Shown here piece after piece: positions 7,646 to 22,201 of a stretch of 64,000 nucleotides of DNA. Position 1 is the stretch's first letter, and the number at the start of each line of letters is the position of its first letter. Position numbers and translations under genes: made by a program. The stretch comes from Octopus vulgaris. Taxonomy: Eukaryota. The notes under the pieces were generated by a model. The model did not search any database. It had not been told where the DNA came from and saw only the letters and a program-made list of their open reading frames with translations. The stretch covers positions 41,416,001 to 41,480,000 of the forward strand of contig OX597834.1 of NCBI GenBank assembly GCA_951406725.2. Reading direction: 5' to 3'.

Positions 7646-10600
7646 GTGAGATAATATTTACCCCTCTTTCTCAAAGTAACAAATCTGTGTAAAGTTAATT
7701 TTCCTATGTACAGAACAAAGTTACAAAAAACAAAAACGAATAAGAAACAATGGCCGTTTTGCTGGTCGTTTGGTATAATTTTGTCATAACGTGTGGTACT
7801 ATTTTAATAAAATATAAAACTATGCTTCAGTATCACAGTGTCTGCCAGTTCCCAAAATCCCTACCTTGGATAAATAAATATTCCTTAGAAAAACTATTTT
7901 TCTGTCAGATTGCGAAAAATGGAAAAGCAGAACAATGAATTAAAGAATCAAGTTTCCCGCTGCATTGAAGCAAGCAAGAGCAGCGGGATGGAAAGTGAAC
8001 TTGAAGAGTGGAAGAACAGATGTAACAATCTTAGAGAGGTACGTTATAAAACTTTGGAATCATAATCTCTCTCTTAGACTCTCTCTCTTTTTCTCACCAA
8101 CATACACTCACACACACACAAACGGACACACATTCATCATACACATGCATACATACATATATACATATAAACGTACATACGTACATACGTACACACATAC
8201 ATACATACATACATACATACATACATACATACATACATACATGCATGCATACATACATACATACATGCATACATACATACATACATACATACATACATAC
8301 ATACATATAAACGCGTGTGTGAATATGTGTGTACTTTGGGGGAGGCGCATGGTCTTCGAGTTACGCTGTATAAACAGAGAGAAATAAGAAAAAATAACTC
8401 CAATGAATACTCTTTTACTCTCTCTTTTACTTGTTTCAGTCATTTGACTGTGGCCATGCTGGAGCACCGCCTTTAGCCGAGCAAATCGATCCCAGGACAT
8501 ATTCTTTGGAAGCATACTACTTATTCTTTCGATCCCTTTTGCCGAACCGCTAAGTTACGGGGACGTAAACACACCAGCATCGGTTGTCAAGCCAAGTTTG
8601 GGGGGACAAACACAGACACACAAACAAACGCACACATACACACATATATATATACCTATATACGACGGGCTTCTTTCAGTTTCCGTCTACCAAACCCACT
8701 GGTAAAAGGCGAAACCGTCTAGGAAATTCAGTGATCTTGGCATCCGTTCCCCTTTGAACCTGGTGCTGCCGGCCTAACTTTCCTCGGTCTCCTCCAGCCG
8801 CAACCTCACTGGTGAGGTACTCCGGGGGATGGTTGAACTTGATGTGGCCCGGGAACTGGAGTGAGCTTTGGGTTATTATGTCATTGAAGCTCGACATCTC
8901 TCAGAATACAGATGTTCAACCGTAAGTGTGACGACATCAAATAGAAAACTACCTTCAGACAGACAGAGACTTCTATGAATCAGTACTACCTTACTTGCCT
9001 TCGTTCCGTTCCGCAGTCAGGCAACGGTCCATGACTCAGTTCGGTGCTCTCCTCATCCGTTATGAAGCTACAGATGACAATTTCGATATATATCAGTTTT
9101 TATGCAGCCCTTACTACAGAGGGGAGGAAGTTAAACAAATACCAGAAACCTGATCTATCGCTATACTTGTGTCGAGACCCTAGATGGTTTTCGGACCCGG
9201 AACAGCTGTAAAGAATAACGCATTGCGAACTATGTCATCGTTATTAGTTATTCAGCAAATAATGTCGCTTGATTCTAAAACGCCGGTTATTAAAGTTTTG
9301 CAGAAACTGCTTGTAATAGTGTGAGTGAGACGACGGAAAACAGATTCTGTTCGTACCGATTTCGCCTTGCTTATTGTTTTTTTGTACTTTATCTGCCATC
9401 CAGGAAGAATTATAAAAGCTTATTGAATGCATGTTTTATAAGAAACATTGACGAAAATATTTGTTTTTTCCTTCTGTAGAAACTAAAGGAAAAAAATACT
9501 CGAAATGTCGTGTTAACTAACCAGGTCGAGGAGCTGAAAGACGAACTTGATATGAAAAAGGATTTCCATAAGGCCGTAATGTTGCTTTTATTTTTTTCCA
9601 TTTCCTGTTATTTCCTTTGCAGGAAAATTGCCATAACGGTTTTGGTTATTTTCTTGTTTAAGGCTTCCTTGAATCAGATGGCTTCACTTTCGCAATCATT
9701 ATTAGAGAATCACTTCTTTTCAAGTGATCAATTGCAATTATCTGACTGAGTTGGTAGACTACAAACCACAGTGTCAGTGGCTCGGATCCTGATAGTAAAT
9801 CTGTTGTCATCTAAGTCTTTGATCAAATTCCGCCGAAGTCGATTTGCCTTTCATCCGTTTGTGGTCTCTAAAAAAGCACCAGCTGAGCACTAAGGTCGTT
9901 GTAATCGACTTACGCCCACTTTCCCGAAATTCCTGGCCTTGTGCCAAAATTTGAAACCTATAGTAGCTTTCTAACGTCCATTTTATTTAGTTTTGTTTAA
10001 CTTACTATTTGCAGGGTGACAATGCATTGAAGATAGTGATGTCAGATTTACAGAAAATATCCTTCGAATATCGTTCGGAGGATTACGAAAAAGCAATTGA
10101 AGATTTACGCGCCGAATATGAGGATATCATTGCTGACTTGAAAAGTACACATGAAAAAGAGGTAAAGAAATACATAGAAAAGAACAAATATATTCATATG
10201 CTTTAAAACTGTTGGAAAATTAACCTTATATATTGTGTTTGTTCTCCTGGTATGTTGTCATTTTGAAATCCGTTAATCTTATATAATCCCACAGAAAATG
10301 CCTTTCAATTGAAAGATTTAAAGAACCTTACTTACCATACTATAGTCGTGTATGATAGTTACGGGAAGAACGTAGACACATTTCAACTTATTTCAGATAG
10401 AATGAGCCATGTTGCTGAAAAGTCATATATACATTGCTATTTCCGATACCAAATTTATATTGATCGATATGCAAAATACGCTGATTATGAAGAGGATGCT
10501 AGAGTCTTAAAAATCTTGTATGCATTAATTTCAGCTTCCATGTATGTGGGAATGGTTGCTACATTAGGGGATGAGGCCCCAGCTTTATCAACAGTGCAAA

Positions 10601-22201: not shown

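Follow-up and report, generated by a model that had tools for sequence, protein, structure and literature searches.

A short-rod intermediate filament gene of Octopus vulgaris whose missing first exon is most likely an artefact of the assembly

Paralog B, a member of a tandem cluster of intermediate filament (IF) genes in Octopus vulgaris, is best read as an expressed and spliced gene whose first exon was likely lost by the genome assembly, and whose product would act in an accessory role, entering polymers together with the proteins of its paralogs. We give this combined reading a probability of about 0.58. The gene was studied in a stretch of 64,000 nucleotides of contig OX597834.1 (positions 41,416,001 to 41,480,000, forward strand), which we call the window and to which the coordinates below refer. 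A preliminary description of this DNA had presented B as a remodelled IF gene without head and coil 1A, encoding 364 amino acids. That gene model is most likely an artefact of the assembly.

Exon structure of paralog B

In the window, B is represented by exons 2 to 11. The features of the gene and of paralog C, which served as the reference, are as follows.

7909-8038, + strand: exon 2; coil 1B; 19 codons below the paralogs; spliced in transcript contigs
9480-9575, + strand: exon 3; coil 1B; free of indels; 34% identity to C
10015-10161, + strand: exon 4; runs from the end of coil 1B through L12 into the start of coil 2; shortened by 6 codons
12907-12993, + strand: exon 5; coil 2; 10 codons shorter than in C; range in the cluster 87-132 nt
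15056-15234, + strand: exon 6; end of coil 2 and terminal motif; 14 codons (two heptads) shorter
16733-16821, + strand: exon 7; tail linker; probable gene-conversion tract with C
19113-19201, + strand: exon 8; beginning of the lamin-tail domain; shortened by 5 codons, with a changed first strand
20155-20265, + strand: exon 9; lamin-tail domain; 76% identity to C
21188-21301, + strand: exon 10; lamin-tail domain; 74% identity to C
22175-22201, + strand: exon 11, coding part; TAA stop; 2 codons shorter than in C and 3 codons shorter than in A
34530..51716, + strand: paralog C, the reference (555 aa, 11 exons); identical to the public O. vulgaris protein P0011

The reading frame is open across exons 2-11, with no internal stop in the window sequence. 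AG is found at 10 of 10 acceptors and GT at 9 of 9 donors, and the exon phases are those of C and of the other paralogs in the cluster. Compared with C, 57, 18, 30, 42 and 15 nt are lacking in exons 2, 4, 5, 6 and 8, respectively, and exon 7 has 3 nt more. The in-frame length changes, the lack of stops and the intact splice sites that had been described before could be confirmed exon by exon. The lengths of exons 2, 4 and 6 (187, 165 and 221 nt) are constant in the other modelled paralogs (n = 8, 8 and 9), and B alone deviates from them. Amino-acid identity to C amounts to 28-38% in the rod exons 2-6 versus 59-79% in exons 7-10, in agreement with the earlier picture of a diverged rod and a conserved tail. 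No marks of a pseudogene were found: the frame is open, spliced contigs occur in 4 of 4 runs, and one peptide has been detected. B is not a pseudogene.

Evidence for a first exon

An exon 1 of B very likely exists in O. vulgaris. Contigs from 4 of 4 sequencing runs, which belong to four studies and two organisms, match 7909-8038 with exact exon ends. The runs were taken as RNA by guess, and the exact exon boundaries in the contigs show splicing. The contigs extend 565, 449, 466 and 467 nt to the 5' side of exon 2, and this extension is not located on 7050-7908. Within exon 2, the window allele differs from the four transcript contigs at 4-5 sites per 130 nt. The exon is also polymorphic among the contigs, and all 3 of the 3 listed sites alter an amino acid.

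A search with exon 6 led to a single protein among 19 candidates, P0001 from O. sinensis (XP_036367711.1 / A0A7E6FIZ9), with a length of 479 aa. Over the rod exons 2-6 it agrees with B at 199 of 212 residues, and the shortened exons and the terminal motif are alike. The differences between the two species are clustered: 5 of 13 fall within 6 codons of exon 6 (15167-15190 region), and 5 lie in exon 2. Exon 1 of P0001 contributes 117 extra N-terminal residues, coil 1A included, and the Pfam Filament model aligns with its positions 1-192 from residue 31 onwards (E 8.9e-8; 32.6 bits, with a curated cut-off of 40). P0001 is an automatic database model of B's ortholog, and its exon 1 is absent from the present assembly. 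When a P0001-type exon 1 was searched for in this genome assembly, it was not found; the best of 36 scored candidates were other paralogs, at 27-41%. Furthermore, exons 8-11 of P0001 are C-type (88-97% to C), whereas B's own tail is B-type; with B exons 1-7 and a C-type tail, P0001 may be either a hybrid of the two genes or a chimera made by the gene model. Outside O. sinensis, no B orthologs were present among the candidates scored (7997 in one search), and the ESM Atlas yielded generic IF clusters only.

Further evidence comes from the skin mucus of O. vulgaris. Among the rows listed in Table S1 of PMC10138644, there is one high-confidence spectrum unique to the N-terminus of P0001, namely an N-terminal peptide of 7 residues with loss of Met and acetylation (XCorr 2.26, PEP 1.07e-3). 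A genome-wide pattern for this peptide gave 19 matches, none of which encodes it. Five other B peptides were also looked for, and none of them occurs among the 3,654 rows listed (PMC10138644).

The earlier claim that B lacks exon 1 is essentially overturned by what transcripts and the sister species contain. The spliced 5' extensions, the exon 1 of O. sinensis and the N-terminal peptide from mucus all speak against an absence of head and coil 1A, and against a length of 364 aa. The suggestion of a soluble carrier of the lamin-tail domain likewise falls, as coil 1A is present in the sister-species protein. We infer that the 5' extension of the O. vulgaris contigs is a P0001-type exon 1, and that the B protein of O. 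vulgaris comprises about 472 aa (117 + 355).

The surrounding gene cluster

The cluster reaches from about 41.358 to 41.74 Mb, in window terms from -58 kb to +326 kb, and is composed of tandem genes for cytoplasmic IFs of the lamin-tail type. According to tblastn, the 464 kb around the window contain at least 11 IF genes: Z, A, B, C, D, E, F (partial), G, H (inverted), I and J. Ten paralogs were modelled exon by exon, H being the exception. Paralogs A-E evolve fast, with rod identities to O. sinensis of 94-96% versus 99.6% for Z, and skin mucus contains several members of the cluster. Paralog D, located at window +66962 to about +86900, is arguably as odd as B. Its terminal motif is replaced by KVASMLALLKDVDS, and its tail linker consists of a 10-residue unit repeated in tandem, in copy numbers that vary between public models; a peptide of the repeat is found in mucus. 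Paralog H, on the minus strand at about +165000 to +174000, is inverted and divergent and has an altered terminal motif. As for the public models, P0002 joins exon 1 of A to exons 2-11 of C and skips B, P0015 is a fusion of E and F, and P0026 is an internally truncated G.

Several tracts of high similarity connect the paralogs. A (-15683 to -5922) and C (37006-44445) show 94-99% identity over rod introns 2-6, and in the tail region the value is about 72%; gene conversion between A and C is thus restricted to the rod. For B and C, 180 of 189 columns are identical in exon 7 and the next 100 nt, and the tract 16675-16986 versus 45985-46292, with 92% over 313 nt, spans exon 7. P0001 changes from B-type to C-type right after this exon-7 tract, and no separate C of O. 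sinensis was returned. A block of 279 bp (5025-5303 versus 24379-24654; 97% identity) lies 2224 nt behind the stop of A and 2178 nt behind that of B; further close copies of it were not found among 40 scored candidates. Upstream of C, 29043-30968 and 31503-32781 form a tandem duplication (85-89%), within which 30492-30622 and 32263-32401 are fragments similar to the 3' end of intron 8. Close to the window end (56940-57790 and 57850-60150 versus 61760-64000), an inverted repeat adjoining a direct duplicate can be recognised by eye, as can a duplication of 2 kb with near-identical copies; the assembly may have duplicated sequence here.

The interval between A and B

Two segments of the window lie where the 5' part of B should be.

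2801..7584, + strand: expected place of the B promoter, of exon 1 and of the larger part of intron 1; occupied only by the 3' flank of A and by SINE-like repeats, a transposon fragment and microsatellites
7585..7908, + strand: residual 3' end of intron 1 (about 330 nt); 70% identity to C intron 1, 36658-37011

Apart from simple repeats, blastn detected no homolog of exon 1 or of the promoter in 2800-7908, which agrees with the earlier remark that an exon-1 homolog is unrecognisable upstream of B. The same exon-1 and promoter queries match the upstream region of C, with E down to 1e-119. The promoter common to A, C, D and E has no copy between A and B, and 5307-6103 is a dispersed repeat. The distance from the stop of A to exon 2 of B is 5.1 kb; in four neighbouring gene pairs it is 14.5-20.0 kb. 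About 10-15 kb thus appear to be gone between A and exon 2 of B.

Loss through the assembly is the simplest reading of the missing exon 1, and in our judgement a highly probable one. The assembly lacks expressed parts of this cluster elsewhere, since paralog F is reduced to exons 6-11 at an N gap 122 kb downstream (window +122148), and since the mucus table contains, among the rows listed, tail peptides of another paralog that the 464 kb do not encode and whose genome-wide matches reach at most 74%. The N gap probably removes at least one further paralog with mucus peptides.

Alternatively, the sequenced animal may carry a true deletion of the B promoter and exon 1, i.e. a null allele, with the full gene in other animals. 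Such an allele would be in line with the absence of an N run between A and B, with signs of unequal exchange (the 94-99% in the A/C rod introns, the 97% of the 279-bp block, the B/C hybrid in O. sinensis), and with the 4-5 differences in 130 nt that separate exon 2 from the four contigs. However, B is as similar to O. sinensis in its rod (93.9%) as are A (94.6%), D (94.1%) and E (96.2%), which indicates no extra decay of the window copy, and the cluster lacks further expressed exons as well. We therefore rate a deletion allele as unlikely.

Exons 2-11 of B could also be an alternative 3' cassette that is spliced to exon 1 of A. The phase would be compatible, exon 1 of A plus UTR (about 570 nt, as estimated from paralog UTRs) fits the longest extension of 565 nt, and the public model P0002 provides a precedent in joining exon 1 of A to C exons. 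Yet a B-specific exon 1 is present in O. sinensis, and its peptide in O. vulgaris. Moreover, exon 1 of A has 109 of 542 31-mers in common with C, the last one included, and a contig break at the junction would therefore be expected if A or C were co-expressed. Such a cassette is very improbable.

An in-phase ATG and a GT donor at 7620-7646, inside the intron-1 remnant, create a frame of exactly 364 aa, which is probably the product meant in the preliminary description. As a mini-exon, 7620-7645 was rejected, the DNA there being homologous to C intron 1; contigs left the stretch uncovered in all four runs, which alone proves nothing. A headless protein of 364 or 352 aa without coil 1A, starting at 7620-7645 or at the ATG of exon 2, could draw on this fitting ATG and donor, but next to the intron homology it has against it that beyond 7909, on the 5' side, the contigs of all four runs carry different sequence and that the promoter of the paralogs is absent from the A-B interval, and it can be practically dismissed.

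Selection on the rod

A two-ratio codon model was applied to six genes, without Z, I, J and F; exon 5 was dropped both here and from the rod trees on account of its unreliable alignment. H was not modelled and is absent from the trees, and F, with exons 2-5 missing, was left out of the rod trees. In the DNA tree of the rod, B groups with A, C, D and E at 96% support; the sister paralog of B receives 31-74%.

Depending on the topology, the rod of the B branch has an omega of 3.3 or 4.5 versus a background of about 0.55-0.6. On all 183 codons and under three frequency models, the values are 2.4-5.5, and omega = 1 is rejected with p 0.00016-0.007; for indel-free codons, p is about 0.014. Taken together, omega on the B branch is above 1 in 8 of 8 data and model variants (p 5e-5 to 0.015), estimates that have to be read with low dS, weakly supported trees, gene conversion and codon-model code written for this analysis in mind. 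The tail of B (0.60) and the rod of D (0.70) are at background level. Compared pairwise with A, C, D or E, the rod of B yields an omega of 1.1-1.25, which does not depart from 1; these four paralogs compared with one another give 0.47-0.83. In a neutral simulation, 212 codons remained free of stops in 0.1-2.5% of 5000 replicates. The open frame of B outlasts this neutral expectation, so that the earlier view of B as being under selection as a protein is upheld. The rod dN/dS above 1 anticipated there is likewise recovered on the B branch, across all variants.

A competing interpretation is that the rod drifted under relaxed constraint, that B is a marginal protein of which no more than the frame is maintained, and that saturation, clustered mutations and gene conversion falsely raise omega above 1. 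It is consistent with a pairwise omega that does not differ from 1 and with the concentration of 5 of 13 O. sinensis differences in 6 codons. Furthermore, rod exons and flanking introns are diverged to a similar degree (69% versus 70%), both values being close to the aligner floor of 63-64% (63% for unrelated flanks), so that this comparison carries almost no information. Against this, stops and also frameshifting indels would be usual under neutrality, where only 0.1-2.5% of the frames survive; omega exceeds 1 in every one of the eight variants, and the tail has kept background constraint. We consider relaxed drift quite improbable.

Head, rod and tail of the protein

Head and rod were measured on the sister-species protein P0001, with coil boundaries set by hand on the alignment. 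The head of P0001 has 31 aa, a net charge of -3, a single Arg and no aromatic residue; in 7 of 7 paralogous proteins, the head has 55-66 aa, a net charge of +8 to +11 and 6-9 Arg. A basic, arginine-rich head is thus absent from P0001. A tripartite rod that starts with coil 1A is present, according to the Pfam alignment, the helical model and the periodicity. It measures 297 aa versus 339-352 aa in the paralogs; the losses relative to C are 19 residues in coil 1, 2 in L12 and 28 in coil 2, i.e. 49 in total. Coil 1 has 175 residues in B versus 194-195 in 12 of 12 aligned relatives. Protostome IFs possess a long coil 1B with 42 extra residues (PMC4829535). This full-length coil 1B is not kept in B, and the shortening is derived. 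The heptad periodicity is retained in the B rod (z 3.4, no prolines), although it is the weakest of six rods tested (z 6.5-9.2 in the others).

The predicted model of P0001 consists of long helices and a tail resembling the lamin Ig fold. Its tail, which is C-type, matches the Ig folds of lamin B1/A (phmmer 1.1e-5; Foldseek 1.5e-9). A homodimer prediction for residues 26-332 reached a score of 0.02 versus a mark of 0.32 and was counted neither for nor against a dimer. In the terminal motif of B, YRKLL is kept and the acidic end has become DVGE; with exon 6 alone, Pfam Filament gives no match for B and 1.5e-12 for C. The YRKLLEGEE motif described as broken is indeed altered in its acidic end, but not uniquely so, as paralog D departs from it far more. 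B terminates in EIDNLDIN, which by inspection is no CaaX end and is unlike the cephalopod lamin consensus in the accessible part of PMC10125929; by this partial comparison, B is not a nuclear lamin. By descent, B is a protostome cytoplasmic IF that has lost the basic head and part of coil 1B.

Discussion

Given this gene structure, we regard a role as accessory subunit as probable, because B would combine the changes of filensin and nestin on a backbone with a long rod and a lamin tail. That B is not a normal filament subunit, as proposed in the preliminary description, is plausible in view of its short acidic head, a coil 2 reduced by 28 residues and a weakened motif. According to this model, dimers would form, and elongation would stall for want of an arginine-rich stretch in the short head, a full coil 2 and a strong motif. 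In skin, filaments formed by paralogs with basic heads (A, C, D and E) would then take B up, and B would limit or decorate these filaments while displaying its lamin-tail domain. As the 49-residue mismatch makes in-register heterodimers unlikely, incorporation would rather take place as B-B dimers at the tetramer level. Basic-headed paralogs of the cluster are found in the same skin mucus, among the rows listed in PMC10138644, and the accessible part of PMC11431876 gives 9 IF-rod proteins in skin mucus.

In known systems, the head is important from the tetramer stage on, and the short head of nestin prevents homopolymers and forces co-assembly (accessible part of PMC11121635). Filensin has a head of 38 aa, the shortest rod and a 29-aa truncation of coil 2; alone it forms no regular filaments, and it co-assembles with phakinin (available portions of PMC2119801 and PMC2199861). 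B is like filensin (BFSP1) in its short head and its coil-2 truncation, for which these portions give 29 aa compared with 28 in B. Unlike B, filensin belongs to the chordate short-rod lineage, has a repeat tail without a lamin-tail domain, and is specific to the lens. The likeness is convergent and not one of homology. Synemin and syncoilin are grouped with nestin as comparable systems. Nestin has in common with the predicted B a short head by which homopolymers are prevented, but it is vertebrate-specific and has a long unstructured tail, and a rod shortening like that of B is not described in the accessible part of PMC11121635.

The protostome long-rod IFs ('70 kDa neurofilament-like', 'ifa-1-like'; in the cluster, paralogs Z, A and C-J) have the 11-exon layout and the phases of B, the same order of coil 1A, 1B, L12 and then coil 2, together with the lamin-tail fold. 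They differ in their rods of 339-352 aa compared with 297 aa in B, whose head, at 31 aa, is acidic. A cephalopod lens IF, 'omega-crystallin', was reportedly described by Tomarev et al. in 1993. In the mucus table, the label 'omega-crystallin' AAA16613.1 is attached, among the rows listed, to transcripts with cluster-paralog peptides, one of which matches paralog I, and this labelling suggests that the lens protein belongs to the same family. It corresponds to the conserved paralogs and not to B.

B might also have become a self-assembling, neofunctionalised homopolymer, in which coil 1 and coil 2 would have shrunk together to give a shorter axial repeat. Coil 1A is retained and the periodicity is significant, both deletions in exon 6 align as whole heptads, the total loss of 49 residues equals 7 x 7, and the mismatch of the same size would make in-register heterodimers with the paralogs unlikely. 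Nevertheless, the head is acidic and nearly free of arginine in a region that matters from the tetramer stage (PMC11121635, accessible part), and the periodicity of B is the weakest of the six rods (z 3.4 versus 6.5-9.2). A homopolymer has, in our opinion, a small chance of being correct.

The accessory subunit can be extended to a broader scenario, which is rather improbable: octopuses would have arrived independently at a keratin-like tandem array of skin IFs, B would be a positively selected, filensin-like subunit that caps or beads the filaments of neighbouring paralogs, and unequal exchange at exon 7 would move rod and tail modules between B and C in different species. If this is true, a filensin-like B would tune the mechanics of a highly deformable skin.

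The analysis corrects a tempting artefact, produced by an assembly without expressed exons of a repetitive IF cluster. The public models in this region are chimeric (A+C, E+F) or do not include B, and we found no account of B, P0001 or the cluster in the open-access literature. An IF with a short head, a short rod and a dN/dS above 1 in that rod would represent the invertebrate analogue of filensin and nestin, and B lends itself to asking whether the co-assembly of IFs is governed by rod length and head charge.
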